The notes below the pieces were generated by a model, which saw only the letters and a list, made by a program, of their open reading frames with translations, had not been told where the DNA came from and made no database searches. Below, piece by piece: positions 11,793 to 39,545 of a stretch of 64,000 nucleotides of DNA. The position numbers and the translations under genes were made by a program. This DNA is from Alphaproteobacteria bacterium. GTDB taxonomy: Bacteria; Pseudomonadota; Alphaproteobacteria; Bin95. The stretch spans positions 480,001 to 544,000 of the forward strand of contig OZ219788.1 of the NCBI GenBank assembly GCA_964291285.2, given 5' to 3'. The first letter of the stretch is position 1; each line of letters opens with the position of its first letter.

Positions 11793-12629
11793 GGTCGTGT
11801 ACCCATAAGGGGTTTCTTCTTCAGCGCAGCTGTGATTCAAGCTCCCAACATCAGGGAGCGAGGACATGGGCCGGTACGATCTGACGGACTTCGAATGGCG
11901 GGTGATCAAGCCGTTGCTGCCGAACAAGACCCGTGGGGTGCCGCGGGTTGACGACCGGCGGGTGTTGAACGGCATTCTGTGGGTGCTTCGCGCGGGGGCG
12001 CCGTGGCGAGACCTGCCGGAGCACTACGGGCCTTGTACGACCTGCTACAACCGGTTCAACCGCTGGCGCAAGAAGGGCATCTGGGATCAGTTGATGGATG
12101 CGGTGGTGGAGGCTCACGACGGCAATGTGCAGATGATCGACAGTTCGAGCGTCCGGGTTCACCAGCATGCGGCGGGATCAAAAAAGGGGGTCCGGATCGT
12201 TGCATGGGCCGTTCCCGTGGCGGACTGACCACGAAGATCCACGCCGTGTCGGACGTGAGCGGCCTGCCGGTCCGCTATGACCTCAGCCCTGGCCAGGCGC
12301 ACGACACCACGGCCGCCGGTGCCATGCTGGCGACCCTGCCGCCCGACAGTTTCCTCATCGCCGACAAGGCCTATGACGCCAAATGGATCCGTGACCTGAT
12401 CGAGCAACACGATGCCGTCCCGATCATCCCCGACCGCGAAGGCGCGAAGACCAGGCACGCTTTCTCCAAACCCTTGTATAAATTGCGAAACCGGATCGAA
12501 CGCGCCTTCAACAAACTCAAGCAGTTCCGCCGCATCGCCACCCGATACGAAAAGCTCGCGGCCAACTTCCTCGCCATGATCAAGATCGCTACTGTCAGGC
12601 TCTGGCTACGCGCTTATGAGTCCACGGCC
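11793..12629 (+). mobile_element. IS5-family (IS427-like) insertion sequence; transposase 11866-12632 made by -1 frameshift
   Basis: IRs GGTCGTGTACCCATAAG / CTTATGAGTCCACGGCC, TA flanks, and slippery A7G4 at 12180-12190 joining orfA (MGRYDLTDFEW...IDSSSVRVH) to orfB (GLTTKIH, ADKAYD, YKLRNRIER). Confidence 0.9.
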
Positions 12630-12738
12630 TAATCTTCAAAAGCGATTCCCTTGGCCCAGCTACCCCCATATCTTGTGTTGGGCGAGTGTTTCTCCTCAGT
12701 ATGCTCGGTTTCAATAATAACCAAGGGGATTGCGGAAC

Positions 12739-23588: not shown

Positions 23589-26381
23589 TCAGCCCAGGAA
23601 GTCGAAATCGGCCTCGGTCAGCTGCGCCGCCCGAATCCCCTCGACCACGATCGAGAAGGTGTCGGCAGGGTCACCGATCACGGTGTCGTTGCCGCTTTGC
23701 TTGATATCGAGATCGGAGAATTGCAGGCTGCCCCTGATGACGATGATGTCCTGCCCGTCTTCGAAGTCGCGGATGCGGTCGGTTTCGGATTCGTTGTCGA
23801 AAACGAACCGGTCGGCCCCCTTACCGCCCATTAGCGTGTCGGTGCCTTTGCCGCCCACCAGCGTGTCGTCGCCGCTCCCGGCGTAGAGGGTGTCGTCGCC
23901 TCTCCCCCCTCTGAGGATGTCGTCGCCGCCGCCGTAGTCGTTGAGCCAATCGTTGCCGTTCCCGGCGTAGAGGATGTCGTCGCCTGCCCCGCCGTAGAGC
24001 ACATCGCCGCGGCCACTGCCATTGAGGGTGCCGCCGAAGTCGCCGTTGGCAAAGTAGTTGAGTACGCCGGGCCGGACGATGAAGTCGTTTCGATCCAAGG
24101 AGTCTGCCGCAACGTCTACCAGGGTGATCGTGTCGCCGTCGCCGTAGCGGATGACGGCATCGGCACCGTCCTGCTCAATCACCAGCGCCGCAAACCTGCG
24201 AGGGGACACACCAATGATGTCGATCCTGTCGCCTCCTCCGAAGTCGGTAATGGTATCATGCCCGTCTCCCGCTGCGAACCGGAAAGTGTCAGCGCCCCCG
24301 CCGCCCGTCAGCGTGTCGGTTCCGGTGCTGCCGTCGAAGAGATCGCGGCCGTCGCCGCCGTTGAGAATGTCGTCGCCGCCCTCGCCGTAGAGGTCGTCGT
24401 CACCCGAGTCGCCGTTGAGAGTGTCGTTGCCAATCCCGCCGAAGAGATCATCATCGCCGACCCCGCCGTTCAGGTCGTCGTCGCCGCGCCCGCCAGCGAG
24501 GTCGTCGTCGCCCGCGTCGCCGTTGAGGGTGTCGTCGCCTCCGCGTCCGAAGAGCACATCGTCGCCTCCGCCACCGTTCAGGGTGTCGTCCCCGTCGCCG
24601 CTGATGTAACAGTCGACGCCGGACCCACCGTTGAAGGTAACGCCATTGCGGGGCAGCGGGTCCGCGGGCTTGCCCATGTCGAACGGCTCATCGCCCGAGG
24701 TGCCCGGGATCGTGTCCGTGTCCTCGCCGCCATCGTTGCCGGCATTCGGATCGCCGCCATCGTTGCCGGCATTCGGATCGCCGCCATCGTTGCCGGCATT
24801 CGGATCGCCGCCATCGTTGCCGGCATTCGGATCGCCGCCATCGTTGCCGGCATTCGGATCGCCGCCATCGTTGCCGGCATTCGGATCGCCGCCATCGTTG
24901 CCGGCATTCGGATCGCCGCCATCGTTGCCGGCATTCGGATCGCCACCATCGTTGTTGGCATTCGGATCGCCACCATCGTTGTTGGCATTCGGATCGCCAC
25001 CATCGTTGTTGGCATTCGGGTCACCACCGTCGTTGTCGTTATCGAGGGGGTTGTCGTTGTCGTCGTCGCTCGTACTGGCACCGTAGGCGGCCTTTTCGTG
25101 ATTGTCGCCGCCACCGCCAGCGGGCAGGATGAAGTCGTTCGCATCCAGACTGTCTGCCGAGACGCCCGACAGCCTGATCGTGTCGCCGCCGCCGTAGCGA
25201 ATGACGGTATCGGCGCCGTCCTGCTCGATGACCAGTGCCGTGAACCCGCCGGATACGCCGTCGAGGCGAATCCTGTCGCCGGCCCCGAAGTCGGTAATGA
25301 TGTCGGCGCCGTCTCCCGCCTCGAACACGAAGGTGTCGGCGCCCTTGCCGCCCCCCAGCGTGTCATCGCCCGCGCCGCCGCGCAGCGTGTCGGCACCCCT
25401 GGCGCCGCGCAGCGTGTCGTCGCCCGCGCCGCCGTCCAGCGTGTCGTTGCCCTTGCCGCCCCCCAGCGTATCGTCGCCAGCCCCGCCGGTCAGCGTGTCG
25501 GCACCCAGGCCGCCATAGAGGAGGTCGTCGCCGGCCCCGCCGGTCAGCGTGTCGGCGCCCCCGTAGCCACGCAGGGTGTCGGCGCCATCACCACCGGTGA
25601 GCGTGTCCGCGTCCTTGCTACCCTTCAGCACCTCCCCGCCAGAAGGCCCGCCGCTCGAGGCATCATCGTCGCCGTCATCGTTGCCGTCCGGCGGCGCACC
25701 CTGTGCAGGAGCGTCCTCGCCGCCGTCCTCCGGCGAGGCTGCCTCGACGGGAAGGAACCGGAAGTCGTCCGCGCCAAGGGAGGCCGCCGTCACGCCCTCC
25801 AGCTTGATCGTGTCGCCGTCGCCGTAGCGGATGACGGTATGGAAGCCCTTCTGCTCGATCACCAGATCCCCGAAACCGCCGGACACCCCGGCGATCTCGA
25901 TGATGTCGCCAGCCTCGAAATCGCCGATGTAATCGGCCCCGTCGCCGACCGCGAACGCAAAGACGTCATGGCCACTGCCGCCATAGAGCGAGTCCGCGCC
26001 CCGGCCGCCGGTCAGCCTGTCGGCGCCCCGGCCGCCTTCCAGACGGTCGTTGCCCGCACCGCCATCGACCGTGTCGTCCCCGTCGCCGCCATACAGCGTG
26101 TCGTTGTCCGTGCCGCCGTCCAGCGTGTCGTCGCCCGCGCCGCCGTCCAGCACATCGTTGCCAGCACCGCCGTCCAGCGTGTCATCGTCCGAGCTGCCGG
26201 GGTTCATGAGGAGAAAGTCCGCGTCGGCTCCCGGGCTTGCGGTTCCGCCCGTCAGCGTGTCGTCGCCGTCGCCGCCCGTCAGGATGTCGTCGCCGAGGCC
26301 GCCCTTCAGGATGTCATTGCCGACGCCCCCCGTCAGGATGTCGTCGCCAGCGCCGCCGGTCCGGGAAATATCCTGTGTCAT
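23589..26381 (-). CDS. RTX/hemolysin-type calcium-binding repeat protein (likely T1SS-secreted surface protein)
   Basis: Dozens of GGxGxDxL nonapeptides, repeated ~60-aa 'DxIxDF...I..EQ.G.DTVIRYG' modules, no N-terminal signal peptide, and a C-terminus of DFDFLG. Confidence 0.85.
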   Translation of the reverse strand: MTQDISRTGGAGDDILTGGVGNDILKGGLGDDILTGGDGDDTLTGGTASPGADADFLLMNPGSSDDDTLDGGAGNDVLDGGAGDDTLDGGTDNDTLYGGDGDDTVDGGAGNDRLEGGRGADRLTGGRGADSLYGGSGHDVFAFAVGDGADYIGDFEAGDIIEIAGVSGGFGDLVIEQKGFHTVIRYGDGDTIKLEGVTAASLGADDFRFLPVEAASPEDGGEDAPAQGAPPDGNDDGDDDASSGGPSGGEVLKGSKDADTLTGGDGADTLRGYGGADTLTGGAGDDLLYGGLGADTLTGGAGDDTLGGGKGNDTLDGGAGDDTLRGARGADTLRGGAGDDTLGGGKGADTFVFEAGDGADIITDFGAGDRIRLDGVSGGFTALVIEQDGADTVIRYGGGDTIRLSGVSADSLDANDFILPAGGGGDNHEKAAYGASTSDDDNDNPLDNDNDGGDPNANNDGGDPNANNDGGDPNANNDGGDPNAGNDGGDPNAGNDGGDPNAGNDGGDPNAGNDGGDPNAGNDGGDPNAGNDGGDPNAGNDGGDPNAGNDGGEDTDTIPGTSGDEPFDMGKPADPLPRNGVTFNGGSGVDCYISGDGDDTLNGGGGDDVLFGRGGDDTLNGDAGDDDLAGGRGDDDLNGGVGDDDLFGGIGNDTLNGDSGDDDLYGEGGDDILNGGDGRDLFDGSTGTDTLTGGGGADTFRFAAGDGHDTITDFGGGDRIDIIGVSPRRFAALVIEQDGADAVIRYGDGDTITLVDVAADSLDRNDFIVRPGVLNYFANGDFGGTLNGSGRGDVLYGGAGDDILYAGNGNDWLNDYGGGDDILRGGRGDDTLYAGSGDDTLVGGKGTDTLMGGKGADRFVFDNESETDRIRDFEDGQDIIVIRGSLQFSDLDIKQSGNDTVIGDPADTFSIVVEGIRAAQLTEADFDFLG
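24726..25034. repeat. 27-bp coding VNTR, about 11 units (NAGNDGGDP/NANNDGGDP)
   Basis: CCGCCATCGTTGCCGGCATTCGGATCG repeated head-to-tail, 8 units of one variant and 3 of another. Confidence 0.9.
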
Positions 26382-27045
26382 CGCGCTCTCTCCTCAACGC
26401 ATGGGTCCATGGCAGGGCATGAAGGCATCCCGCGCCGAAAAGCCGGTTCCGCCCGCCAAAGCGTCGGCTCGCAGAGCGCATCCTGCCCGGCGCTCCCGGC
26501 CGTTGCAATCGAATTCGGCCCGGCGGCAGGCGCACTGTGGCGTTCCCGGCCCTGTCAGGTTTGGACCGGCCTCCGGACGGTTGACACGCTGCCGTCCGCG
26601 ATGGGGTAACCCCAGGCCGCCGTGGTCCGCCAGGCGCTGTAGGTGGCCGTGGGCACGCGCCCGCGCTTGCCCGTCTGAGAGCGGTTGGCGAAGAGCGCAT
26701 TGGTACTGGGGGGCACGGGAATTTCGAGGCAGTGGATACCCGGCGGGAACTTCCCGACCGTTGATCGGGAAGTTACGATTTGTCCGCTGCCTTGGCGGCC
26801 TTGTTCGCTGCCTCGGCGTTGGCCTTCTTTGCAAGCTGCCGCCTGAAAGTGGCGAAGTTCACCTCCGCCTCGGCGTTGGCCTTGTCCTGCTGATTGGCGG
26901 TGGCGGGCGGCCCATCGTTCCACGGCTCAAACAACCGATATGAGGCGTGTGCGCTGTTTGGAAGTGCTTTCTGAGCAAGGCATTGCGGAGGGTCTGGATT
27001 TTTCTTACCCCATCAGGATGGCTGATTTCCGGGGTTTTTGCGGTT

Positions 27046-27248
27046 GCCGTGAAAATTATTGGGGATTGAGCGCACAAAAACCCCTCCCCGCCAGAGCACT
27101 GCTCCCGAGGCGTCCGATACTCGCCATCTGCGGCACCCGTCTTGCGGACCGTGACCGGTAGGCAACCCCGTAAAAGCCCGAAGTCCCGCCCGCGCGGCCG
27201 GCACCTGTTTTCATGATACGGGGTGGCCGACCCGCCCGGCAATGAAGG
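27046..27248. repeat. 203-bp non-coding repeat, copy 2
   Basis: Inverted copy of 21358-21560, with one dinucleotide difference seen (CA/TG). Confidence 0.85.
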
Positions 27249-27401
27249 TTTTGGAGGGAAAGGTTTTGTGGATTTCCCCCCCATGGCCGTGCGCGGGCTG
27301 GTTTTCGGGCGCGTCGCGTTGAGGCGCGGGACTGAGTAGAAGGTGTCGCCATCGGGCCTGCGGCCCTTGTTCCATCCACCGGTGCTGGTTGGGAGAACGT
27401 G

Positions 27402-28023
27402 ATGGCGACAGCGGAGAAGTTACCGTTTTCGTGGCGGTCTGTCGAAGGTCTTCCGGATCTTGCGCGGTTGCGTGTGGTGCTGGAGGTGCTTCCGGACGAG
27501 GAGGTTGTGGCAGCGCTTGAGGCGGGTCGCGGTCGCGGGCGGAACGACTATCCGGTGCGGGCGATGTGGCGTGCGTTGATCGCGGGGATCGTGTTCCAGC
27601 ACGCCTCGATGCAGTCGCTTCTGCGGGAGCTGGGCCGCAACCCGGCATTGCTTGAGATTTGCGGTTTCGAGGCGCTGCCCTTGCAGGGCGCGCCGGTGGT
27701 GGCGCTTTGCGCGGGGCGGGTGGTGAGGTATCCGGCGCCGTTGCGCTCGACGGTGCCGGGCGCCTGGAACTTCTCGCGGTTCCTGGGGCGCGTGGTGCGC
27801 CTTGAGGACGAGCGCGGCCTTGTGTCGGGGATGATCGGGCGCCTGCGCGCATCGTTGTTCGAGGAACTGCCGGACTTCGGTCGCCATCTCGGCTACGACG
27901 GCAAGGCGGTCGGGAGCCATTCGACGGGCCGGGTTGCCGGGGCCAGGGGGAAGACCTCGGACCCCGATGCGGATTGGGGCAAGCACGAGACGGGCGGGGT
28001 GAACGCGAAGACCGGCGCGGCGT
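27402..28023 (+). pseudogene. IS1182/IS5-like DDE transposase, 5' half (split by an integrative element)
   Basis: GRGRNDYPVRAMWRA, CGF and GYDGKAV...DADWG. It joins in frame to WKKVKSWFGYGLHL at 38097. Confidence 0.8.
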
Positions 28024-28405
28024 AAATCTCGAACGTGATTTTTCGAGTTAGGGCACTATCTGACAGAGGGTCGCATTCCTCCCATGAAGGGGGTTTGAAT
28101 ACTGGATATTTTCGGGCATGGCAAGAGGCATTGGCACGAAATCCGACTGACCTACAGGAAGGTTATGAACGCGATAGTGGCACTGGGGGAAGTAAAACAG
28201 TGGCAACGCATTGTTTCCGGGGGGCATTGAGGGTAGCTTTATGCATGAATGCAGTTCTGGCACGAAAAAAGCCACGACCATCGTGGTGATGCACCAAATC
28301 AACCTGTGAGAGGATAAATATGATAACTGATACAGGAAAAACACAAGCACACTTGCCGGTAAAGCACGGAATTCTGATGGCTGCGGCAGGTCCGGGGGCG
28401 TCGTC

Positions 28406-28806
28406 ATGAGCCGGGCTCCGGGGGGTGCCGCACGCAGCATGCGGTGATGGCGACCGCGAACGAGTGGGCGCGCATCAGGGAGCTTGCCGACGAGGCGGGC
28501 ATGGAAATATCGCGCTACATCGTTCACCGGGCCATCATGGCGGAGGCGGTGCCGGCCGTCGTCATGCGGCGCGCGGTGCGCGAACTGCTGGTGCTGCGCG
28601 AACTGCTGGTGCTGGCAAAGATCGAGCAGGAGCGCATGGAGGACCTCGACCTGGGGGACCGCTGGGCCGCTCTCGGCGATGCCGTGGATGCCTGGCTCTC
28701 CCGTGAGGGCGACCTGGACCGTCTGACCGATCCCGGCGCGGCGGCGCGCTGGCAGGCGGTCTCCGTCGGCGCCGATCCGGAGGGCGGCCCCGCGCCGCAG
28801 CCCTGA
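28406..28806 (+). CDS. Small RHH/MobC-like protein 1 (possible frameshift in the G6 run at 28420-28425; alternative start 28447)
   Basis: EWARIRELADEAGMEISRYI RHH-like helices and an 18-bp internal duplication (RELLVL x2). Confidence 0.5.
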
Positions 28807-28813
28807 GGCGGTC

Positions 28814-29143
28814 ATGGCAAGAGTGGTTCGCCGCACCCTGCGCTGCACGGCGGTCGAGAAGGCGGCGATCAGGGAGAGGGCCGAGGCGGCGGGCATGCCG
28901 GTCTCGCGCTTCCTGATAGCCTGCGCGCTGCACGAGGATGCGGGCGGGGCGCCCCGCGAGGAGCCCCGGCTCGTGCTCTCGGAGGAGGAACAGCGGACAT
29001 TGCATGAGCGGGTGGCGCGGATGGACGCCGTCCATCGTGCCTTGCACGAGGCGCTTCCCGGCACGGACCTGTCGCTGTTCGGCGCGATCGCGTTCATCCA
29101 GCGCGCGCTTCGGGAGCGCCCTTCGGGATGGGCGGATCGATGA
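28814..29143 (+). CDS. Small RHH/MobC-like protein 2
   Basis: RRTLRCTAVEKAAIRERAEAAGMPVSRFLIACAL fits the MobC-type RHH pattern. Confidence 0.65.
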   Translation: MARVVRRTLRCTAVEKAAIRERAEAAGMPVSRFLIACALHEDAGGAPREEPRLVLSEEEQRTLHERVARMDAVHRALHEALPGTDLSLFGAIAFIQRALRERPSGWADR

Positions 29144-29589
29144 CGGCGCGCGGTTCCGGCGCGCGGGTGCGGCTGACCATCTCGTGCTCCGACCTGGACT
29201 GGGAGCGAAGCCGGGAGATCGCGGACCGGCGGGGCATTTCGATCAACGGGCACATGATTTCCGCCGGGCTGAGCGTCGAGCTCGACCCGGAGGCGTTGTC
29301 CGGTCCTTCGCTCGTCCTGTCCGGGGCGGAGCAGCGGCTTCTGTTCGACCGGGTCGCGCGCATGGCGGACAGCACCCTGGCGGCGGCGGGCCCGGGCGGG
29401 AGTTCCATCGAACGGCTCCGGCAATCGGTGGAGCTGCTGCTCATGACGGTGCTGCGCGACATGGTCCGGCAGGGCCGGGAGGACGAACTCGGGCCGCTGC
29501 TGGCGGAGACGTTCGGCGCCGACCACGCCCCGGAGATCGAACGGCAGTTCCGCAAATGGATGGAGAACGGGACGCCGCTGTTGGGCTGA
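29140..29589 (+). CDS. Small RHH-like protein 3
   Basis: ATGA overlap with the upstream gene. RLTISCSDLDWERSREIADRRGISI, plus an LVLS..EQR.L..RVARM segment shared with protein 2. Confidence 0.55.
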   Translation: MTARGSGARVRLTISCSDLDWERSREIADRRGISINGHMISAGLSVELDPEALSGPSLVLSGAEQRLLFDRVARMADSTLAAAGPGGSSIERLRQSVELLLMTVLRDMVRQGREDELGPLLAETFGADHAPEIERQFRKWMENGTPLLG

Positions 29590-29745
29590 GCGGCAGTATT
29601 GTCCCTGCGGCGTGCCGATGCTGCTCGATCGGGTTGTTTCGGAAGCGCCGGCGTTTTCGGCCAGCCAGAGCGCTCACTCATCGGCGCCGGCCTCCGCAGC
29701 GGCGCCGCTTCTGTCGGGGTCGCTTCCGGTAAGGGGCAGGACCGC

Positions 29746-30546
29746 TTATCGTTGGGTTCCGGCTGAAAGCGAAGCGCCGGCCTGCGACGAATGTCCCGGC
29801 CTCGCGAGCGTTCGGGCCGCCATCGCCGGGCGCCCGGTTTGCGTCCGTCTCGCCGCCCACAGCGATGCGGGCCGGCCGCGCTCCGGCCGCGCGCCTTGCC
29901 CGGCCTTCGGCGGGGGCTGCGGGGCTCGTTGCTCGAAGGCCCCGCTCTCGCGCACATGGCGCTGGAAATTGCCGGGATCGAGCGAAGCGTTCCAGACGAC
30001 CTCATAAACCCGTCTGAGTTGCCGGATCGTAAACTCCGGCGGACAGAACCCTGCGGCAAGCGCCGTGTGCTCCAGCCCGGAACGAATCCGCCCCAGGGCA
30101 TCCCTGACAATCCGCTCATGGTCGAAGGCGAGGCGGATGGCACCGCTCTCGATGCGCTCCACAGGCACAAGACGGGCCGCAGCAGCGTCCCCGCCACCGC
30201 GCGGGGCCGGCAGGCGGGCGCAAACCGCCCAATAGGCGACGGTAACGACCCGCATGCGCGGGTCCCGGTCCGGGGCGCCGTAGGCGGCCAGCTGCTCCAG
30301 GCGCCAGGCTCCTTCGATGAGTCCGGTCTCCTCCGCAAGTTCCCGGGCGGCGGCTTCCTCCAGATCCTCGTCCGGGCGCACGAAGCCGCCGGGCAAGGCC
30401 CAGGCCCCGGAATAGGGCTCTCCGCCCCGCTCGATCAGCAGCACCTGGAGCGCGTCGTCCCTGACGGTGAACAACGCGATGTCCGCCGTGACAGCGAACG
30501 GCGGGAATGACCTTGCGTCGTATCGGGATGAAGCTTCGGAAACCAT
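29746..30546 (-). CDS. nrtR: NrtR-family regulator (Nudix + winged HTH)
   Basis: WALPGGFV...AAARELAEETG Nudix box, RDPR, LAFDH and the FT...L..VYE...NF wHTH. Confidence 0.85.
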   Translation of the reverse strand: MVSEASSRYDARSFPPFAVTADIALFTVRDDALQVLLIERGGEPYSGAWALPGGFVRPDEDLEEAAARELAEETGLIEGAWRLEQLAAYGAPDRDPRMRVVTVAYWAVCARLPAPRGGGDAAAARLVPVERIESGAIRLAFDHERIVRDALGRIRSGLEHTALAAGFCPPEFTIRQLRRVYEVVWNASLDPGNFQRHVRESGAFEQRAPQPPPKAGQGARPERGRPASLWAARRTQTGRPAMAARTLARPGHSSQAGASLSAGTQR

Positions 30547-30558
30547 CTCTCCAAAATA

Positions 30559-30608
30559 AATTGTTGATTTGACAATATCAAGCACCATATATTGTCTGAA
30601 CAACAATT
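30559..30608. promoter_or_regulatory. Two NrtR operator boxes (GT-N7-AC palindromes) in the divergent promoter
   Basis: aattGTtgatttgACaata (30559-30577) and tattGTctgaacaACaatt (30590-30608) match the NrtR GT-N7-AC core with AT-rich flanks. Confidence 0.7.
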
Positions 30609-30727
30609 AAAAGCGGTGGCCCGGCTTCGATGAATGAAATCGTGCTCGTTCTCAACTTCCTTTCCTTTGCGCTCTCCGGAGCGTTCCTCCTCTACGTCGT
30701 TCTGGCGAGCCTGTGATGGAGACATGC

Positions 30728-31687
30728 ATGACAGTCCTGAACCTGGACGCCGCCGCCGTGGGCGCGCCGATCACGCGGCTCGGCATATCGTTCTTCCCGG
30801 TCTACGCGCCGGGCAACCGGCTGCCGGCGATCGCCACCGGCGAATCCTCCGGGCTGCTGGTGGACGAACTCGACACCGCGTCGGTGGAAGCGTTGCGGGC
30901 GACCAATCCCACTGACAAGCCGGCGCTGGTCGTCGAGGGGGAGCACTTTCTGGGCGGCCTGCAGAACCGCGCGGTCAACGCCACCGTGCTGGTGGCCGCC
31001 ATGTCGAAAGTGGAAATCCCGGTATCGTGCGTGGAGCAGGGACGCTGGGGACGCCGCCAGGCATGGCGGCGCGCCGAGGAGTTTGCGCCGCCCCGCATTC
31101 GGGCGGCACAGCACGCGGGTGTCGTCCGGTCCCTGCGGCGGGACGGTTCGCGCGAGGGCGACCAGGGCGGCGTCTGGCAGGAAGTCGATGCGATGCTGGA
31201 GGAGGAAGGTGTCGTATCAAACACGGTGGCGGCATCGGACCTGAAGCAGGCATACCGGCGGGAATCGTCTCGCGCGGAAGCCGTCGAGGAACTCGTCGCA
31301 GGCGGTCCGCTGCCGGGCCAGTGCGGAATCGTCGTTGCCCACGGCGGCCGGGTGACGGGGATGGACCTGTTCGGCGCGCCGCACCTGCTCTCGGCCCACT
31401 GGGGGCGGCTGGTGCGCTCGCATTATGTCGAACCGGCGCTGGTGGGAGGGCGGCCGTCCCTGGACCGTGTCCTGTCGCTCATCCGGCGTTTCGGACGGGC
31501 ACCTGCGCGGGAAATGCCGGGCGTGGGCCTTGGCGTCGAATATCGCATCCACGCCGGCAGGCTGGCCGGGCAGGTGCTGGCGCTGTACGGTGCGGTGGTC
31601 CATGCGGCCTTCTCGCGGGACGCTCGCAAAGAACAAACCGATCATGGTCGAAAGGGAAGGAACTGTCATGGTTGCTGTCATGGTTGA
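30728..31687 (+). CDS. DUF6569/ARPP-1-like protein
   Basis: GE...GG.QNR..N...LV...IPVSCVEQGRW and Q..VW motifs. GGAG RBS; adjacent to an ADP-ribosylglycohydrolase. Confidence 0.7.
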   Translation: MTVLNLDAAAVGAPITRLGISFFPVYAPGNRLPAIATGESSGLLVDELDTASVEALRATNPTDKPALVVEGEHFLGGLQNRAVNATVLVAAMSKVEIPVSCVEQGRWGRRQAWRRAEEFAPPRIRAAQHAGVVRSLRRDGSREGDQGGVWQEVDAMLEEEGVVSNTVAASDLKQAYRRESSRAEAVEELVAGGPLPGQCGIVVAHGGRVTGMDLFGAPHLLSAHWGRLVRSHYVEPALVGGRPSLDRVLSLIRRFGRAPAREMPGVGLGVEYRIHAGRLAGQVLALYGAVVHAAFSRDARKEQTDHGRKGRNCHGCCHG

Positions 31688-32717
31688 CACGAATCGCGCG
31701 CGAGGGCTGATGGCCGGGATCGCGGTGGGAAACCTGCTGGGAATCGCAATGGAAGGGTGGCCGCGGCAGCGCATCGCCCGGGAGTACCCGGCAGGTGTTC
31801 GGGAGATCGCCGCGAAACCGGGATATCCCGACGACGACGATCTGGCGCAGGCCATCGAAATCGCCGACGCGGCAACGGCCGACGGGGGACTGGATGTAGA
31901 CGACCTGGGCAGGCGCTTCTGGGCGTGGGCCGAAACGAACGGCGCGGGCATGGGCGGCCTGACCGGGGACGTGCTGGCATTGTACGGCGGCAGCTATCCC
32001 CGGCGGCTTGCCCGCAACCGCGATACAGGGACCGCACGGACGCCGGAAGGTGTTCCGATCGTCGAGGCGTCGCGGCAGGCGTGGGAAGGAGGCCGGGCCG
32101 GCAACGGCGCGCTGATGCGGTGTGCGCCGCTCGCGATCCGGTGGCATGACGATCCGCATCGGCTGGTGCGGGAGAGCGTGCTCTCGGCCGTGCCAACGCA
32201 CTGGGACTGGCGCTGTGGCTGGTCCTGCGCGCTTGCGAACCTGGCCTGCGCCGCCGCGCTGCATGGCGAAACACTGTCTGCGGAAGCCCTGTTGCGGTCG
32301 GCGCGGGACGGTATGGCGGCATCCCTGCCTGCGCTCCGCGATTACGGCTACCGCGCCGAAATTCCGTCATCGGTATCGGAAGCGGTGACCCTGGCGTCGC
32401 GGTCCACGATGGACGATCTGGGGTTCGACGGCGACGACATGGGCTTCACGCTTCTGTCCCTCCAGGCGGCGCTGCTCTCGTACTGGCAGGCGGAAGACTT
32501 CGAGTCCGGTTTGCGCAAGGCCGTCGAGGCGGGTGGCGATACGGACACCAACGGCGCCATTGTCGGCGCGGTGCTCGGGGCGCGGTTCGGCCTCGCGGCA
32601 ATCCCCGAACGCTGGCGGCGCCGGGTAGACGGGATCAGGACGGGGCGCGTGTCGATGGAGGCCTGCGCCGAACGGCTGGCGGCCCGGCGGACATCAACGA
32701 ATGTGCATACGTCTTGA
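31668..32717 (+). CDS. ADP-ribosylglycohydrolase (DraG/ARH family)
   Basis: AVGNLLG, DDD, GNGALMR, PTH and GGDTDTNGAIVGA motifs. Confidence 0.85.
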   Translation: MVAVMVDTNRARGLMAGIAVGNLLGIAMEGWPRQRIAREYPAGVREIAAKPGYPDDDDLAQAIEIADAATADGGLDVDDLGRRFWAWAETNGAGMGGLTGDVLALYGGSYPRRLARNRDTGTARTPEGVPIVEASRQAWEGGRAGNGALMRCAPLAIRWHDDPHRLVRESVLSAVPTHWDWRCGWSCALANLACAAALHGETLSAEALLRSARDGMAASLPALRDYGYRAEIPSSVSEAVTLASRSTMDDLGFDGDDMGFTLLSLQAALLSYWQAEDFESGLRKAVEAGGDTDTNGAIVGAVLGARFGLAAIPERWRRRVDGIRTGRVSMEACAERLAARRTSTNVHTS

Positions 32718-33562
32718 CCGTCGCCAGCACCTTTCCCGATACGCGGCGCGATCATTGTCGTGAATGATTTCTGAGGGCCCCGACGGCTGGAATGGAGAGC
32801 TTCGCCCAACTTGGGAGAGGCGCGCTGTCGGTGACGCCTGTCGGGCCATGGTCCTGGGAGGCCCGAAACCTTTCCTGCTCCTGCGAATATCGGATTTCGG
32901 GAAATTTCGGGTGAGCGCAGGGGCGATCAGGCGCTTCCCGCCCTGCGTTGGCCATGCCCTGCCCCTATTGTTCCGAAATGAGACGGAAAGTCTCGTCGCC
33001 CGGCCAGAGGCCTCGTTCCATGGCCAGTTCTGAGGTTGAGAGCATGACGGCGGCACGGGAGAACCCGGGCGGCGTTCTACTGTCCGCACGGTCGCAAACG
33101 GACCGCCCTGAAGTCAATTTGCAACGGCGTGCCAAGCAATGAGAGAGGTGCGCCGTTCGGGGCGGCTTGTCGGACCGGAGCCCCGGGAGGCTCGGGATTT
33201 CTCTTGCCCTGATATCCCGGTGGCATTTGGGATGAAGCGGGCATCCGCCTCTCAGGAGAACGACTGGGAATCTTCCATGGCCAATTCATGAAGACGTTGG
33301 ACGTTGCATTCGGGCGATTTGCCTGCCCTGTCCAGCTATGCACCAGCTCCGCAGTAGCTTGTATCGCTACCGATCAGCCCGCGCTGAGCCCGCCGCCTTC
33401 GGAGCGGTCGACGCGCTGCTCCTGGGTCGTTTCTTGCACCTGCCGGGGCGTCTGAACCGGCTTCGGCGGGTTCAGGATACGTGCGCGGCGGGTCTCGTCG
33501 CTCCATTCGGCGCGGAAGCATCCGCGCGCGGTGACCGCGGCGACCGTCCTCTCGATATCGCT

Positions 33563-35486
33563 CCTGACTTCGACGGTTGATTCGGGTAAGTAGTTGATAT
33601 TGTCCGGTTCTCATTTCCGGCCAGGCACTACATTCGGCATTTCTTCGAGTTCTGGCCGGGCGTGGCTGTGGGTCAGGCGAGCAGGTACGGGGTGATTGTC
33701 AGGGGCAACCCCAAGGTGGCGTAGATCTGTTCCGCCGCGGGTGTGGGCTTCGAGGGGATGACGTAGCGGTTTCCCGATTGCCGGCAGCGCAGCACGGAGC
33801 ATTGGCGGTGGACGAGGGCGGAGCGGATGACCTCCGGGGACATCCTCTGCTTCTGGATGGCGACGCGGTATGCGAGGTGGCGGACACAGGCGAAGGCCAT
33901 GAAGGCGATGGCGATGTGGGCGCGGATGCGGTCCGGGTTCCAGTGCCATATGGGCCGCACCCGGAGGTCGTGCCTGGTGATGCGGAAGCTTTCCTCGACC
34001 TGCCAGAGCCCGTGGTAGTGGGACATCACTTCGGTGACGCTGGCGTCGCGCAGATTGGTGATGACGCCGGCGAGCCCGTCCCATTGCTCGGCCTCGGCGA
34101 TCTTCTCCGGGTTCACCGTGAGCCGGGCGTCGCCCTCGACGGCGATGAAGCGCTTCATTCCATGGTTGGAGAGCAGCTCCTTGGGATTGTTGCTGCGGGT
34201 CAGCCTGCCGAGCAGGCGCTGCACCTGCTTGCGGCGCTCGTGCGCGTCCTTGCGCGCGCGCTTGGGGCAGAAGACGACGATCAGGCGTCGGCCCTTGTAT
34301 TCCCATTCGCCGACCCGGCGGTTCTCCGGGCCCTCCAGCGGGGCATAGGCGTCCGGGTCGAGAAGCTGCTTGCGCAGGGCGAGCGGCAGCTTGCGCAGCC
34401 GCGCGCCGACGACATACGCGCCGCCGATCCTGTCCATGGCGTCGAGGTTGTCGGCGCTCAGCATGCCCCGATCGGCCACGCACACCATGCGCTCCACCTG
34501 GTGGCGGCGCTGCATGTCCCGCAGGACCGGGACCAGGCTGTGCCCCTCGTAGGTGGCGCCGGGGAAGACCTCGTAGCCGATCGGCAGGCCTTCGCGCGTC
34601 ACCATCAGCGCCAGCAGGATCTGCGTGTCCTTGTGCTTGCCGTCCTTGCTGAAGCCGTGCTGGCGAAGTTCGTCCTCAACCGCGCTCTCGAAGGAGAGCG
34701 TGGTGCAGTCGAAGAAGAGGATCGCGACCGGCTCCGGCAGCAGCGACCGGCTCGCCTCGCCGACCCGCGTGCGCAGACGCTCGATCACGGGCGCGTCGAG
34801 CTGGTCCATCATCCGGTAGACCTTCTCGAGCGGCAGGCTCACGCCGAAGTCCTCCTCGAGCCGGCGCACGCTGCCCCGCTTGCTGTCGGGGTTGGCGATC
34901 CGCGCCATCACCAGGTGGAACAGCGCGTCGTGCGAGGCGCGGTAGCGCGAACGCGGCAGCAGCGTGTCCAGGCCCAGCAGGCGGTACATCTCGCCGTAGA
35001 CCTCGTGCACGCCGGTGACCAGGCGCTGCTCCTCCTCGATCTGCTTGAGGTCGACCGGGAGTTCCTGCTTGCCGTCGCCCCGGCGACCGACGCGGATCAC
35101 CTGCCCGGCGATCTTCTCGGGCGCAAACAGCAAGGGCTGGCGCTCGTCCTCCAGCTTCGCCTTGACATACGCGCCGAGCTGCCTCAGGCGCTCGAGCTCG
35201 TCCTCGTCCATGGCCACGCCGATGTGGCGCACGATGCGCTGGCGCACCTTGCCGCCGTCGCGCACCGCCTCGACCAGCTGGACCGAGCGGCGCGGGCTGT
35301 TGGGCGTGGACTTGATGCGAACGAACATGGGCCGGAGTATAGCCCGCGGCGAAGATATCCGAAATCAAATATAATCACTAGGCACTACAATCCAACGCAA
35401 CTGCAACGCAACTGCCAAGTCATTGGCTTCGCTGAAAACTCCAGACGCAACATCAGCCGAAATCCGGCTCAACCGTCGAAGTCAGG
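33563..35486 (-). mobile_element. IS1634-family insertion sequence (transposase 33673-35328)
   Basis: Perfect 18-bp IR CCTGACTTCGACGGTTGA. FFDCT, GFSKD, VADRGM and Y..LWQVEESFR motifs. No obvious target duplication. Confidence 0.9.
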
Positions 35487-35698
35487 CGGGTTTTGCAATC
35501 GCGCGGGGAATTCGGCTTCAACAGGAATTGAGTCTGCTGGACTGCTACATCGAGAGCGCCGTTGCGCGCCATTCGCACCACCTGGGCGCGGGGCTCTCCC
35601 TCGGCCTTGAGGGCGCGCACCGGCCGGGTCCGGCTCCCGAGACAGCCTCGTGTTGCACGGCGCGCTGCGATGGCAGGAGAACGCCCGGTAGTGGCGCG

Positions 35699-36844
35699 TC
35701 AGGTCTCCAGCACGGCGTTCATGGCCTGCCCGACGCGTTCCGCGGCGGCTTCGATGTCGCGGTCGGCGATATGGGCGTAGCGCAGCGTCATGCGCACATC
35801 GGAATGTCCGAGCAGGCGGGAGACGACCGGGACGGGCACGCCGTTCATCACCGCATGACTGGCCATGGTATGGCGCAGGTCGTGGAGGCGGACATCCCCG
35901 ATCCCGGCTTCGCGTCTGACGCGGTACCAGAGCGGCAGGTCCGGGCTGCGCGGGCGGGCGGGGTCGCGCGGCGAGGGAAACACGAACGCGCTGCCCGTGC
36001 GCGTCTGCCGGTAGAGGATAGCGCGGGCCTGTCTGTTGAGTGGAACCGTTCTCGGTCCGGTCTTGGCATCGGTGAGCGCCAGCCCGTCCTCGCGGACTTC
36101 CGACCAGCCGAGGCCCGTGATCTCGCTTCTGCGGCAGCCGGTCAGCAGCAGGAGGCGGATAATGTCGGCCTGCCGCCGCGCACCCTGCCGGGTCTGCGCG
36201 TCCAGGGCGGCATGGAGGCGTGCGAGTTCCTCCCGGGACAGGAACCGTGTGAGTGCCGGGCGGCGGTTCCTTCTCATGTGCCTGGCCGGATTGACCTCGA
36301 CATGACCGCAGGCGAGGGCGAAGTTCATGATCTGGTGAAGGAGGGTGAAAGCGCGGTTGGCGCCGCCGGGTGCGGTCCGGCTGTAGCGGTCGAACCACTG
36401 CCGGACATGGCCCGGCGCAATGCGGTCGAGCGGCTTCGAGCCGAATGCGGGAAGCAATTGTCGCCGGAGTATCCCGGACGCGGTTTGCTGGCCCGACGGC
36501 TTGTAGCGGTCGAAGTGTGCCTGCTTCCACGAACCCGCGACGAAATCCCGGAACAGCGGGGCCGCGCCGGGCGGCGCGGCTGTCTCCTCCGGCTGCGGGG
36601 CCGCCTGGCGCTCGAGAGCCTCCCGGCGGGCTTCGGCGGCGCTCTTCACGCCAACCGGGCCGAGCGAGACGCGCTTCGTGCGCCCGCCGCTGTCGAGCAG
36701 CAGCACCCAGCTGCGCCCGCCGGTGGGCCGCACCCGGACGCCAAGGCCGGCGATGCGCGTGTCCCAGACCGTATATTCCCGCTCGCGGGGGCGGAAACGG
36801 GCGACGGCGGCGTCGGTGAGTTTCATCCGTTCCCGGCCCGCCAT
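35699..36844 (-). CDS. Tyrosine recombinase/integrase B (arm-binding N-terminal domain)
   Basis: LTGCRRSEI, KTG, HDLRHT, LLGH and TLRY. The start overlaps the upstream stop (TGATG). Confidence 0.9.
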   Translation of the reverse strand: MAGRERMKLTDAAVARFRPREREYTVWDTRIAGLGVRVRPTGGRSWVLLLDSGGRTKRVSLGPVGVKSAAEARREALERQAAPQPEETAAPPGAAPLFRDFVAGSWKQAHFDRYKPSGQQTASGILRRQLLPAFGSKPLDRIAPGHVRQWFDRYSRTAPGGANRAFTLLHQIMNFALACGHVEVNPARHMRRNRRPALTRFLSREELARLHAALDAQTRQGARRQADIIRLLLLTGCRRSEITGLGWSEVREDGLALTDAKTGPRTVPLNRQARAILYRQTRTGSAFVFPSPRDPARPRSPDLPLWYRVRREAGIGDVRLHDLRHTMASHAVMNGVPVPVVSRLLGHSDVRMTLRYAHIADRDIEAAAERVGQAMNAVLET

Positions 36845-37968
36845 CAGCCTGCCTCCAGCGCGGCGCCGACGGTCTCGGCTGCGTCCTGCACCATGGCGTC
36901 GGCGACATGGGTGTATTTCAGCGTGGTTTCCGGCCTGCGGTGGCCCAGCAGCCGGCCGATGGCGAGCACCGTCTCGCCCTGCCTGAGGGCAAGGCTCGCA
37001 TGCGTATGACGCAGGTCGTGAAGGCGGGCGTCCTCCAGGTGCGCCTCGGCGCGGACCCTGCGCCAGAAGTGGTCCAGCCAGCACCCGCTCCGGGGCCGGT
37101 CGCCCCGAGATGCGGGGAATATCCATCGCCCCTTACGCTCGAGACGATCAAGCACCGTCCGGGCCGGCTCCGACAGCCAGACGGTTCTCGGCCCCGTCTT
37201 GGAATCGCGGAGAAACAGGCGGCCTTCGCGGTAATCGGACCATTGCAGGGTGAGGATCTCGCCCTTGCGGCAGCCGGTCAGCAGCAGCAGGCGGATGGCG
37301 GCAACATGCTGCGGCCAGCGGGCCTCATGCGCCTTGAGCCTCGCGGACAGGCGGCGGATTTCCTCGTCCGGGAGGAACCGCTCGCGGCCCTTGCGGCGGT
37401 AGCGCCTGATGCCCCGGCAGGGGTTGGAACCCTCCGGGCGCAGGCCCATGGCCTCCGCCTCCCTCATGATGACGGACAGCACCGGCATCGACCGGTCCGC
37501 CGCCACCGGCGTCGCGCGCAGGCGGGCGAACCAGTTCCTTACCTCCTGCCGGTCGATGTCCGCGACTTGCCGTCCCGCGAAATGCGGCAGGATCTGGCAG
37601 CGAAGATAGCTGCGGTTGACAGCGAGCGTTCCGGCCTTCCAGAGGCGCTCATACCGCCGGAAGACCGTCCCGGCGACGGCCTCGAAGACCGTCTCGTCCA
37701 GCGCAGGCGGCGCTTCCCCGCCGCGCCTGATGGCGGCAAGCATGTCCGCAGCCACGGCCCGCGCCTCGCCGATGCTCATGGACCCGGCGTCGCCGACGAT
37801 CTTCCAGATGCGCACGCCGCGATGCTGGCAGTGGATGAAGAACTGCTTGCGGCCCAAGGGCGACACCCGGACGCCGAACCCCCTGAGCCTGCCGTCGCGG
37901 ACCTCGCGGACGGACCTGCGGGGCTTGAGCGCCTTCACGCGGACCTCGGTGAGGGTAGTCTTCGCCAT
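36844..37968 (-). CDS. Tyrosine recombinase/integrase A (arm-binding N-terminal domain)
   Basis: LTGCRKGEI, KTG, HDLRHT, LLGH and TLKY. Confidence 0.9.
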   Translation of the reverse strand: MAKTTLTEVRVKALKPRRSVREVRDGRLRGFGVRVSPLGRKQFFIHCQHRGVRIWKIVGDAGSMSIGEARAVAADMLAAIRRGGEAPPALDETVFEAVAGTVFRRYERLWKAGTLAVNRSYLRCQILPHFAGRQVADIDRQEVRNWFARLRATPVAADRSMPVLSVIMREAEAMGLRPEGSNPCRGIRRYRRKGRERFLPDEEIRRLSARLKAHEARWPQHVAAIRLLLLTGCRKGEILTLQWSDYREGRLFLRDSKTGPRTVWLSEPARTVLDRLERKGRWIFPASRGDRPRSGCWLDHFWRRVRAEAHLEDARLHDLRHTHASLALRQGETVLAIGRLLGHRRPETTLKYTHVADAMVQDAAETVGAALEAG

Positions 37969-38096
37969 TGCGTTTCTCCCGGCTCCGGTTGCAGCCGGGG
38001 AACGGGCCCTTGCGACCCGCTTGCCCGACCGCTACATTTCGGGAGAAAAAACGATGCTATGTCAGGTAGTTAGCACCCACCGGTGCGGGCGCGGTG

Positions 38097-38951
38097 TGGA
38101 AGAAGGTGAAGTCGTGGTTCGGCTACGGGCTGCACCTGATCGCCGACACGGACCACGAGGTTCCTGTGGCCTTCGAGGTGACGCGGGCGTCGGCATCGGA
38201 ACCCGGGGTGCTGTCCGGGATGCTGGAGGAGTTGTTCGCCGAGGCGCCGGAGATGGCCGGGCGCTGCGCCACCTTCAGCGCCGACCGCGGTCTCGACAAC
38301 GCCCGCCTGAAGGCGCGGCTGTGGGACAGGTGGCATATCCGCCCGCTGATCGACACGCGCCTGATGTGGCGGGTCGAGAAGAAGGAGCCGGGCCATGACC
38401 CGGCCCGGCCGATCACGCGACCGCTGTTCCCCGGGCGCGCCGACGTCATCGTTCATGACGAACGCGGCCGGGTGTCCTGCGTGTGCCCGCAGACCGGCGA
38501 GGTCCGCGCCATGGCCTTCCAGGGGTTCGAGGTCGGGCGCGGCGTCTGCGGCACGCTCAAATACCGCTGCCCCGCAGCCGCCTTCGGCTTCGAGTGCAAG
38601 GGACGCCGGGCCTGCCATCGGGCGGGTGGGGTGAAGTCCGGCGAATACGGCCGCATCCTGCGCGTCGACCTCGACAGCCATGACCGGCGTATCTTCACGC
38701 CCACGCCCTGGGGCAGCCCGTCATGGCGGCGCGGATACAACCGGCGCACCGCCATGGAGCGGATCAACGCCCGCCTCGACCGCAGCTTCAACTTCGAGAC
38801 CCATTACATCCGCGGACGCGCGAAGATGAAGACCCGCATCGGGCTGGCCCTGGCGGTCATGATGGCCATGGCGCTTGCACAGGCCCGCGCCGGACGCGTC
38901 GCACGCATGCGCTCCCTGGTCGGCCCGGCGCCATACCTCGATACCGGCTGA
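38097..38951 (+). pseudogene. IS1182/IS5-like DDE transposase, 3' half
   Basis: WFGYGLHL, ADRGLD, YRCP...C...C and YNRRTAMERINA. Continues the 27402 ORF. Confidence 0.8.
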
Positions 38952-38953
38952 TA

Positions 38954-39545
38954 CCAGCGGGCATAGTTCAGAACCCATTGGCCCATTTTCGGGTTCCGAT
39001 GGAGGCGATGCGTTCTGGTTGTGAGACGAGATTGTTCCAGGCCTGGCAGCAGTGATCGAGTATGTCGTCGTAGTTCTGGAAGACGCGGTTCGAGAGCCAA
39101 TTTTCGCGCATGAACTGCCAGACATTCTCGACGGGATTGAGCTCGGGGGACCGGGGCGGGAGCGGCATCAGGGTTATGTTGTCGGGGACTTTGAGGGCCG
39201 GGGATGTGTGCCATCCGGCCCGGTCGAGCATGACGAGGGCATGGGCTCCGGGTTCAACGGTGAGGGCGACCTCGGCGAGGTGGGCGTTGAGTGCCTCCGT
39301 GTTGGCGTGGGGCATGACGAGGCCGGCGGCCTTGCCCTTCTGCGGGCATATGGCGCCGAAGATGTAGGCCGAGATGGTTCTCTGGTCCTTGGGCGCTGAC
39401 GGTCGGGTGCCGCGTTTAGCCCATCGCCGGGTGATCTTGTTCTTCTGCCCGACGCGCGCCTCGTCCTGCCACCAGACTTCGACCTCGACGCCGTCGCCGA
39501 GTGCAGCGCGGATCTCCTTCAGGCGGTCGGGGAAGTTTTTTTGAA
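38954..39545 (-). mobile_element. IS630-family transposase 3' half, 5' part lost
   Basis: QDEARVG, LDRAGWH and SPELNPVE. A slippery A-run sits at ~39536-39542, at the truncation point. Confidence 0.8.

Follow-up and report, generated by a model that had tools for sequence, protein, structure and literature searches.

Introduction

Prokaryotic transposons that move by tyrosine recombinases are listed, in the excerpts of PMC10214605 used here, as five groups: integrative and conjugative or integrative and mobilizable elements (ICEs/IMEs, with Int and Xis), integrative elements of the strand-biased circularizing type (SEs, with IntA, Tfp, IntB and Srap), GInts (GinA-D), RITs (RitA-C) and Tn554-related elements (TnpA, B and C). 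Only a small number of groups need more than one recombinase (Tn554, SEs, GInts and RITs), and they are not well understood. Here we describe a stretch of 64,000 nucleotides from an alphaproteobacterial genome (GCA_964291285.2, contig OZ219788.1, positions 480,001 to 544,000), called the window below, in which a long insert with two integrase genes, intA and intB, splits a transposase gene. We consider it probable that this insert (28024-38097) is one copy of a multicopy, cargo-carrying tyrosine-recombinase transposon, whose two integrases would work on an asymmetric core as a pair of the XerC/XerD kind.

The Tn554 family (TnpA, TnpB and TnpC) is found in Staphylococcus and Enterococcus and has actinobacterial relatives. 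As excerpts of two papers present it, Tn554 is non-conjugative and depends on two adjacent tyrosine recombinases and a small accessory protein; its terminal inverted repeats are imperfect, its junction segment has 6 bp, and it prefers a short target (PMC10214605, PMC3414803). The recombinases of this type are called 'simple', without an arm-binding domain, in an excerpt of PMC8138268. One of the Tn554-type recombinases is abnormally long, with 611-828 amino acids in the actinobacterial set. SEs encode two catalytic recombinases at one end, in an operon whose genes are translationally coupled. Their terminal inverted repeats are imperfect and enclose a 6-bp spacer, their cargo varies, conjugation genes are lacking, and an insertion into an insertion sequence (IS) gene is recorded (PMC10214605, in excerpt). 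SEs require Srap and Tfp, a catalytically dead protein of recombinase fold encoded between intA and intB. They circularise by copy-out without an empty site, and a 6-bp fingerprint of the donor is placed at attR. SEs are reported from Gammaproteobacteria only, and homologues of Tfp and Srap as not found in Alphaproteobacteria. GInts (ginABCD) and RITs (ritABC) have blocks of several tyrosine-recombinase genes at one end, RITs together with terminal inverted repeats (excerpts of PMC10214605 and PMC3414803), and the RIT recombinases are described as Xer-like simple tyrosine recombinases (PMC8138268, in excerpt). Among integrative elements with a single integrase, CTnDOT tolerates mismatches in the crossover region, according to an excerpt of PMC2817482.

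Results

A precise insert in a multicopy insertion sequence

The insert lies in an IS that occupies 26942-38951 of the window and is 1,730 bp long once inserts are removed. We take this target IS to be IS5/IS1182-like. Its transposase has the domains DUF772 and DDE_Tnp_1/DDE_Tnp_1_6. The left part (26942..28023, + strand), which starts at the IS boundary at 26942, contains the N-terminal half of the transposase (27399-28023) with a match to DUF772, and the right part (38098..38951, + strand) contains the C-terminal half with matches to DDE_Tnp_1 and DDE_Tnp_1_6. The open reading frames (ORFs) 27399-28025 (DUF772) and 38094-38951 (DDE_Tnp_1) are halves of this single IS transposase. The IS is cut at 28023/38098, and the insert measures 10,074 bp when one copy of a short core sequence is counted with it.

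About 27 copies of the target IS are present in the source genome (G000; 6.1 Mb in five contigs, C1-C5). Uninterrupted copies are colinear with the window up to 28023 and again from 38098 with no bases lost or gained, for example C5:44222-44995/44996-45849. The site is empty in 24 of the 27 copies that cover it and reads gacc-GGCGCGGTGT-ggaag with a single core, while three copies, the window included, continue into the left end of the element. A preliminary description, made from the letters of the window, had proposed a 10-kb element in a transposase whose halves rejoin in frame. The coordinates are confirmed, the size is corrected to 10,074 bp including one core, and the frame is borne out by the exact abutment of the halves in intact IS copies, which hold no extra sequence at the junction. 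A contig joint 28013->38088 in Logan contigs (runs X22 and X23) corresponds to the empty IS form; 24 other IS copies yield the same joint, which is not assignable to this locus.

In the window the attR core GGCGCGGTGT (38088..38097, + strand) is the same as the empty site. The attL core GGCGCGGCGT (28014..28023, + strand) differs from the empty-site sequence by one mismatch, and all empty sites of the target IS hold the T form of the core. The two cores thus match at nine of ten positions, which agrees with the direct repeat given in the preliminary description.

Copies of the element and their common backbone

A BLAST search of G000 with the insert gives about 18 full-length copies of its last 2.4 kb (intB, intA and the right end), with 71-98% identity, in addition to truncated ones, and 14 copies of its first 500-1,600 bp. 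Close right ends number about 17. An nhmmer search of G000 with a left-end profile gives nothing beyond the 14 copies from BLAST, which means that the more divergent integrase pairs have other left ends. Left ends are found by BLAST in four of the nine other genomes searched.

Complete elements were defined by pairing left and right ends according to orientation. Eight of them, 8-39 kb long, are present in G000. E1 is the copy of the window (10.1 kb), and E2 (C2:1395559-1406614, 11.1 kb) occupies the same IS site. The others are E3 (C3:1579028-1587281, 8.3 kb), E4 (C3:1616808-1625006, 8.2 kb), E5 (C5:390323-400424, 10.1 kb), E6 (C1:412410-448755, 36 kb), E7 (C3:123434-145042, 21.6 kb) and E8 (C1:1132383-1171139, 39 kb). 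Three more are found in the related genome G015. Pairwise comparison shows that the arms alone are common to all elements and that no transposase or other recombinase is shared. The backbone consists of a non-coding left arm of about 400 bp with up to three ribbon-helix-helix (RHH) genes, and of intB-intA with a right arm of 129 bp. Conservation between copies ends at the intB stop codon. The cargo between these modules differs by group: E1 and E6 carry a set of ADP-ribose genes, E2 has an ORF of 2,273 codons, and E3-E5 encode a porin, a Slam-type outer-membrane protein and one unknown protein. Precise ends at unrelated sites, empty sites and tyrosine recombinases as the sole conserved recombinases are thus all observed, as is characteristic of a tyrosine-recombinase transposon. 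The transposon-like element of the preliminary description, with paired tyrosine integrases as the sole conserved enzymes, stands in this respect.

Some copies appear to have moved recently. E4 and E5 are 99.8% identical over 7,239 bp, with an extra insert of 1.8 kb in E5, and this near-identity at different sites, with unrelated flanks and different cores, indicates recent movement. The cargo of E1 and E6 is 98% identical while their integrase modules are 90% identical and their cores differ, so modules recombine between copies. Such exchange would also be expected if segmental duplication, or homologous recombination between copies of the IS, had spread the elements in place of their own recombinases, the ends being relics, and G000 is extremely repeat-rich and has several unpaired ends. 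We nevertheless regard this explanation as very improbable, since identical precise ends adjoin unrelated flanks at at least eight sites, the empty sites are exact, and the flanks of E4 and E5 are unrelated. In addition, the IS left halves beside E1 and E2 are 93% identical and the integrase modules 97%, which suggests separate insertions into different IS copies and not copying of IS and element together; gene conversion is a possible source of this contrast. A misassembly is argued against by the same junction structure, which recurs 11 times.

Element ends and junctions

The left arm (28024..28443, + strand) is conserved and non-coding with about 55% G+C. It starts with a palindrome (28024-28041), which is followed by a subterminal inverted repeat (28055-28083). 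Several of its blocks are invariant in all 14 copies of G000, and an Rfam search of the arm gave no match. The right arm (37969..38087, - strand) covers the 119 bp upstream of intA, and these make up the 129 bp together with the 10-bp attR core. It contains the inverted repeat at ~38036-38072 and a palindrome, GCACC-N4-GGTGC, at 38073-38086. A gapped local alignment of 28055-28083 with the reverse complement of ~38036-38072 has 32 matches in 48 columns, in line with the imperfect subterminal repeats reported at first. The inverted repeat is kept in 14 of 14 left ends in G000 and in 45 right ends of other genomes, and it is therefore not due to chance. The ends as a whole are kept around homologous integrase pairs, both in G000 and at 45 loci elsewhere. 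Short direct repeats, TGGCACGAAA, occur twice in the left arm; we do not claim them as arm-type sites, for they are only partly conserved between copies.

The left junctions in G000 read flank-...GTGT/AAATC..., with GGTGT in 12 of 14, GGCGT in the window and GCGTGT in one. The close right junctions in G000 read ...TTAGCACC-N4-GGTGCG, then 5-7 variable bases, GGTGT or a one-base variant of it, and the flank. In other genomes, flank-ACACC-N(4-7)-CGCACC is the arrangement along the intA strand at 42 of 45 right ends; the spacer is N6 in 36, and the flanks are unrelated. When left and right ends are compared within elements (eight pairs in G000 and three in G015), a shared core of 9-13 bp that ends in GGTGT is found, and it is perfect in seven of the 11. 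These are E2, E6, E7 and E8, with 10-13 perfect base pairs, and the three pairs of G015, a complete related genome, with 10, 12 and 9 bp. The core has one mismatch in E1, E4 and E5. From these patterns, the joined ends would read as the palindrome GCACC-N4-GGTGC followed by G-N6-GGTGT and by the palindrome AAATCTCA-AA-TGAGATTT, with the subterminal inverted repeats of 30-35 bp lying 20-30 bp beyond the joined core on either side. The core is asymmetric: the sequence on one side of N6 is not an inverted copy of that on the other.

Direct repeats of about 10 bp, subterminal inverted repeats and a DDE transposase gene within the window copy could also point to DDE-type transposition with a target-site duplication of 10-11 bp, driven, for example, by that nested transposase or by a host IS that acts in trans on the inverted repeats. 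This is the explanation to which we give the least credence, and it is extremely unlikely. The nested transposase is absent from the other elements, the inverted repeats sit 20-30 bp inside the element ends and not at the tips, GGTGT stands at every junction, and the insertions have one orientation only. In particular, the near-identical E4 and E5 already have mismatched repeats. Both mismatches fall at the same position, the eighth base from the right, and together with the near-identity of the two elements this makes a target-site duplication followed by mutation very unlikely. The mismatches of E4 and E5 fit heterology inside a crossover region.

Target choice

A relaxed choice of target had been supposed in the preliminary description. 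This is not supported as stated: the family as a whole occupies many sites, but each lineage keeps one core of about 10-11 bp (N5-6 plus GGTGT) and is inserted where this core is present, in a single orientation. In a tree of sixteen 2.4-kb modules from G000 the copies group by core. Four copies with the core GGCGCGGTGT, which are 95-97% identical to the window's, all lie in the target IS in the same orientation, and the junctions observed in this IS (three left and four right) all have one orientation. Another core, GCCGTGGTGT, is found in four copies, three of them at one point of a second IS and the fourth beside a different flank. This second IS, whose transposase is found at window 11979-12632 (DDE_Tnp_1), has eight empty single-core copies and three filled ones in G000, and the window itself holds an empty core of that other lineage at 12304-12313 (- strand). 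Five copies with the core CTC-NNN-GGTGT have five different flanks. A lineage-specific core is to be expected if element and target have to agree in the central region. The supposition that no tRNA site is used holds good, with at least eight different non-tRNA sites occupied in G000.

The integrase pair

The gene intA (36844..37968, - strand) encodes an arm-type tyrosine integrase of 374 amino acids (Arm-DNA-bind_3 and Phage_integrase), and intB (35699..36847, - strand) encodes one of 382 amino acids with the same two matches and intact catalytic residues. Each protein has the Arm-DNA-bind_3 domain (PF13356), a SAM-like central domain and the Phage_integrase catalytic domain. IntA and IntB are paralogues with 40% identity (151/376, E 1e-63). 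As was seen at the outset, both keep R-K-H-R-H-Y, and the intA stop and intB start overlap in TGATG. In NCBIfam only Xer and integron-integrase models match, all far below threshold; the best are Xer models, with 56-79 bits where the cut-offs are 220-335. Neither NCBIfam nor PADLOC assigned the integrases or the RHH proteins to a specific family. Sequence matches in the PDB are integrases, namely 5c6k_A (4.4e-12), HP1 integrase, lambda Int and XerD.

The pair is strictly kept. IntB follows directly after IntA in 49 of 55 loci of other genomes, which were found with IntA at 65-84% identity. The remaining six are one pair split by an insertion, one deletion derivative and four loci without an IntB match, one of these at a contig end. 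The distance from intA stop to intB start is -4 to +6 nt in 63 of 65 pairs. The six catalytic residues are invariant in all near-full-length copies (62/62 IntA and 63/63 IntB), with no internal stops. The 55 loci are mostly from metagenome-assembled genomes (MAGs) labelled Alphaproteobacteria, Defluviicoccus sp. or Rhodospirillaceae, with one labelled Paracoccaceae and two labelled Chloroflexota/Dehalococcoidia. The last two (L033 and L056) have about 74% identity; their contigs belong to MAGs with the labels Dehalococcoidia and Chloroflexota, and a binning error or transfer across phyla could account for them. Among genomes of the same genus, 15 of 16 searched have the integrase module, with several copies each. 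Over 100 protein clusters with at least 77% identity are on file, named, if at all, only 'tyrosine-type recombinase/integrase' or 'site-specific integrase'. Overlapping arm-type pairs are also found on plasmids of Aurantiacibacter atlanticus (L092, NZ_CP015441.1, 30609-32911) and Photobacterium damselae (pPHDD1; L093, NC_014653.1, 49487-52104), where they are annotated only as 'site-specific integrase'.

A tblastn search of G000 gave 100 integrase-like intervals, which include 41 adjacent A-B pairs and four pairs with a 65-bp gap. The pairs belong to four families, and none of the intervals is a full-length IntA-like or IntB-like gene without a partner. A small FastTree tree separates the first genes of most pairs from the second genes, with supports of 0.86-0.99, except in family F4, where both genes cluster together. 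From the pair counts, the invariant catalytic residues and the split of the tree, the pairing is old and maintained.

Single P4-like integrases suffice for many islands, and both proteins show the usual arm-type architecture. It could thus be asked whether the locus is an ordinary island or IME run by one such integrase, the second gene being a paralogue that is redundant, one in reserve for a different site, or no more than a structural or regulatory helper. The clustering of the F4 genes, as after a recent duplication, would suit this. We judge it unlikely, because the pair is kept in 49 of 55 loci and as 41-45 tandem pairs over all families in G000 with no full-length gene alone, because the six catalytic residues do not vary in either gene, and because the A and B clades are old and mostly separate and reach the Aurantiacibacter and Photobacterium plasmids. 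The asymmetry of the core half-sites argues in the same direction. Strict pairing, intact catalytic residues in both proteins and the asymmetric core are indirect signs that IntA and IntB may act as a heteromer.

Proposed mechanism

At dif, an asymmetric site whose central region has 6 bp, one arm is taken by XerC and the other by XerD. We propose by analogy that IntA and IntB are produced together from the right end and bind the asymmetric core ...GGTGCG/N6/GGTGT-AAATC..., which would form when the two ends join in a circle. Each integrase would take one half-site, as XerC and XerD do at dif, and the subterminal inverted repeats could serve as arm-type sites for the N-terminal arm-binding domains. 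Strand exchange would occur at the borders of the central region of about 6 bp, with a target that reads N6-GGTGT, and would leave N6 plus GGTGT on both sides of the insert, seen as a 'direct repeat' of 9-13 bp. As every lineage would carry its own central region, it could re-insert wherever its core of about 11 bp occurs. Since the central region would travel with the lineage, multicopy IS genes that hold the core would be hit repeatedly. Mismatches tolerated in the central region would segregate and may give rise to imperfect repeats and to new target specificities. The RHH proteins are probably accessory, directionality or regulatory factors. The circular intermediate, the cleavage positions, the heteromeric action and the RHH role are all read from the anatomy of the element.

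Several observations weigh against the proposed transposon and its mechanism. There are fewer left ends (14) than right modules (about 18-20) and several ends lack a partner, which may mean that many copies are rearranged or dead. The core of E3 has three mismatches in 11, and the mismatch of the window's own core falls in GGTGT and not in N6. The distance from GGTGCG to the end of GGTGT varies between copies from 10 to 12 nt, which fits poorly with fixed points of cleavage. No gene was recognised as an excisionase. Logan contigs (runs X21-X23 and X1), which drop rare forms and so say nothing about circles, gave no circular junction and no locus-specific empty site among the joints listed, and among the contigs listed none bridged either element junction. 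E5 is not directly derivable from E4 under a carry-over of the Tn554/SE type or a simple heteroduplex model. Moreover, conservative tyrosine recombination by itself brings no gain of copies, yet about 20 are present, and this leaves room for copy-out like that of SEs.

A wider and more tentative proposal would cover all these pairs. The elements, together with a compact family of about 3 kb described below (F3), may form a new superfamily of IS-like tyrosine-recombinase transposons, each with an element-encoded heterotetramer of the XerC/XerD kind. A travelling region of about 6 bp would set the target and be reprogrammed by heteroduplex segregation, and a replicative, SE-like copy-out would explain the at least 40 pairs. 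We hold this to be possible but doubtful.

RHH genes and cargo

Three small genes follow the left arm. RHH1 (28444..28806, + strand) encodes a NikA-like ribbon-helix-helix protein, which matches PF21983 just above the cut-off (E 3.5e-6, 27.5 bits against 27), and its G+C content at third codon positions is 0.87. Of the genes in the left module it is kept most widely. RHH2 (28814..29143, + strand) encodes a NikA-like paralogue (PF21983, E 4.2e-10), with MobA/MbpA models below cut-off. RHH3 (29140..29589, + strand) encodes a third small protein that has no Pfam match and resembles RHH1 and RHH2 by eye; it is found with 80-86% amino-acid identity beside left ends in three other genomes. The whole trio RHH1-RHH2-RHH3 stands beside the left end with 80-90% amino-acid identity in G015 (three loci), G016 and G007. 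It is also present in four copies of G000, and the other copies have RHH1 alone or a degenerate form. According to the Pfam family description, NikA-type proteins are relaxosome accessory factors. Judged by annotation, a role of the RHH proteins in mobilisation in trans is possible, and a role as directionality or architectural factors at both terminal palindromes is equally possible.

The cargo of the window copy starts with a gene for a NUDIX hydrolase with an NrtR-type winged helix (29746..30606, - strand; PF00293, 2.7e-21; PF21906, 8e-9). An ARPP-1 domain protein (30713..31687, + strand; PF20208, 3.7e-61) and an ADP-ribosylglycohydrolase (31425..32717 as the longest ORF, + strand; PF03747, 7.9e-50) follow. 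The true start of the latter is probably at about 31650-31700, because the domain begins at residue 94. PADLOC gave nothing for the cargo beyond a weak PDC-S07 match for the NUDIX protein. The region 29746-32717 looks like an ADP-ribose/NAD-centred conflict or signalling set, and the 98%-identical cargo block of E6 on C1 is combined with a different integrase lineage and core. A DDE transposase of 551 amino acids, presumably IS1634-like, is nested in the cargo (33673..35328, - strand; PF01609, 4.4e-13). It has one other, partial copy in G000 (C1:803184-804123, 99.7%), and it is missing from the other elements and lies outside the family backbone.

Related families and neighbouring repeats

Other families of integrase pairs are present in G000. 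F2 has eight pairs (about 60% and 55% identity), for example C4:326409-328670 and C2:637218-639476. F4 has four pairs (about 37% and 38%, with the 65-bp gap), for example C2:209006-211301 and C3:1343315-1345610. F3 is a compact element of about 3.0-3.1 kb with 11 copies of about 95% identity, for example C4:237046-240063, C4:462146-465146 and C5:300451-303458. It seems to hold two integrase genes only, which are 43% and 40% identical to IntA and IntB, and its integrase-side junction reads flank-ACACC followed by a short palindrome. F3 has the look of an IS that is based on a pair of tyrosine recombinases.

The left end of the target IS is interrupted at about 27046-27251 by a 206-bp repeat that resembles a miniature inverted-repeat transposable element. 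IS copies without this unit exist, and a contig joint 27043->27250 corresponds to the IS form without it. The unit has dozens of copies in G000, some as tandem dimers, and about 110 bp of it adjoin copies of F3. Right after the target IS, a repeat at 38951-39300 with at least 10 copies at 100% identity over 350 bp is probably another IS that abuts it. Elsewhere in the window, at 26027-26260 within the large ORF 23589-26381 (- strand), many different joints that leave out about 93-229 bases are seen in the contigs of related runs, which suggests a length-variable internal repeat in this ORF.

Discussion

The element is real and well bounded, and it belongs to a large unnamed family of two-integrase transposons. 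The family appears to be undescribed: a search of full-text literature, with subscription journals and supplementary tables outside it, found no description of a two-gene arm-type integrase transposon. It offers a clean natural data set, with dozens of copies, exact empty sites and a target that follows a short core carried by the element, and its catalytic proteins are just two, both of ordinary size. If the central region sets the target, this would be a simple integrase system that can be retargeted by sequence. If true, it would explain how cargo islands multiply like ISs, namely by parasitising the IS copies that contain their core. For annotation, such genes are labelled only 'site-specific integrase', even on plasmids of cultured Alpha- and Gammaproteobacteria.

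Comparison with known systems

The family shares with P4-like islands and IMEs, and with elements of the Tn916/CTnDOT type, the domain architecture of the integrase and a core common to both junctions. Those elements have one integrase and usually occupy a tRNA or another single site once per genome, in P4-like islands and IMEs typically the 3' end of a tRNA gene, whereas an obligate pair, an IS-like copy number and no tRNA site are found here. With XerC and XerD at dif it shares two paralogues that would each take one arm of an asymmetric site, a likeness in the inferred mode of action only. Unlike XerC and XerD, the integrases are encoded by the element, have an arm-binding domain and are not Xer orthologues.

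With GInts and RITs the family has in common a block of recombinase genes at one end of a mobile or putatively mobile unit. GInts have four such genes and the element has two, and the NCBIfam model for GmtZ of the gamma-mobile-trio scores 24.7 bits against a cut-off of 600. The distinction from RITs drawn in the preliminary description is upheld, as the right module consists of intB and intA without a third recombinase and its neighbour is a DDE transposase. Furthermore, both integrases match PF13356 Arm-DNA-bind_3, unlike the recombinases of RITs.

With SEs the family shares a coupled catalytic pair at one end, inverted repeats, a spacer of about 6 bp, cargo that varies, the lack of conjugation genes and the use of an IS gene as a target. 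In contrast to SEs, nothing is encoded between intA and intB, and tfp would find no space there, since the intA stop and intB start overlap or are at most 6 nt apart in 63 of 65 pairs; Srap was judged by its description. Tn554 is similar in its two adjacent recombinases, imperfect inverted repeats, segment of about 6 bp and short preferred target. The element differs from it in that both integrases are arm-type and have about 375-380 amino acids, that its accessory genes are RHH genes at the opposite end, and that N6 plus GGTGT is found on both sides of the insert. The conserved modules contain no TnpC-like gene, TnpC being judged by description and not by sequence. Thus the gene set of the family is that of none of the five listed groups, the separation from the Tn554 and SE proteins being drawn from their descriptions. 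In its way of working the family is most like Tn554 and the SEs, while its proteins look most like the integrases of P4-type islands.

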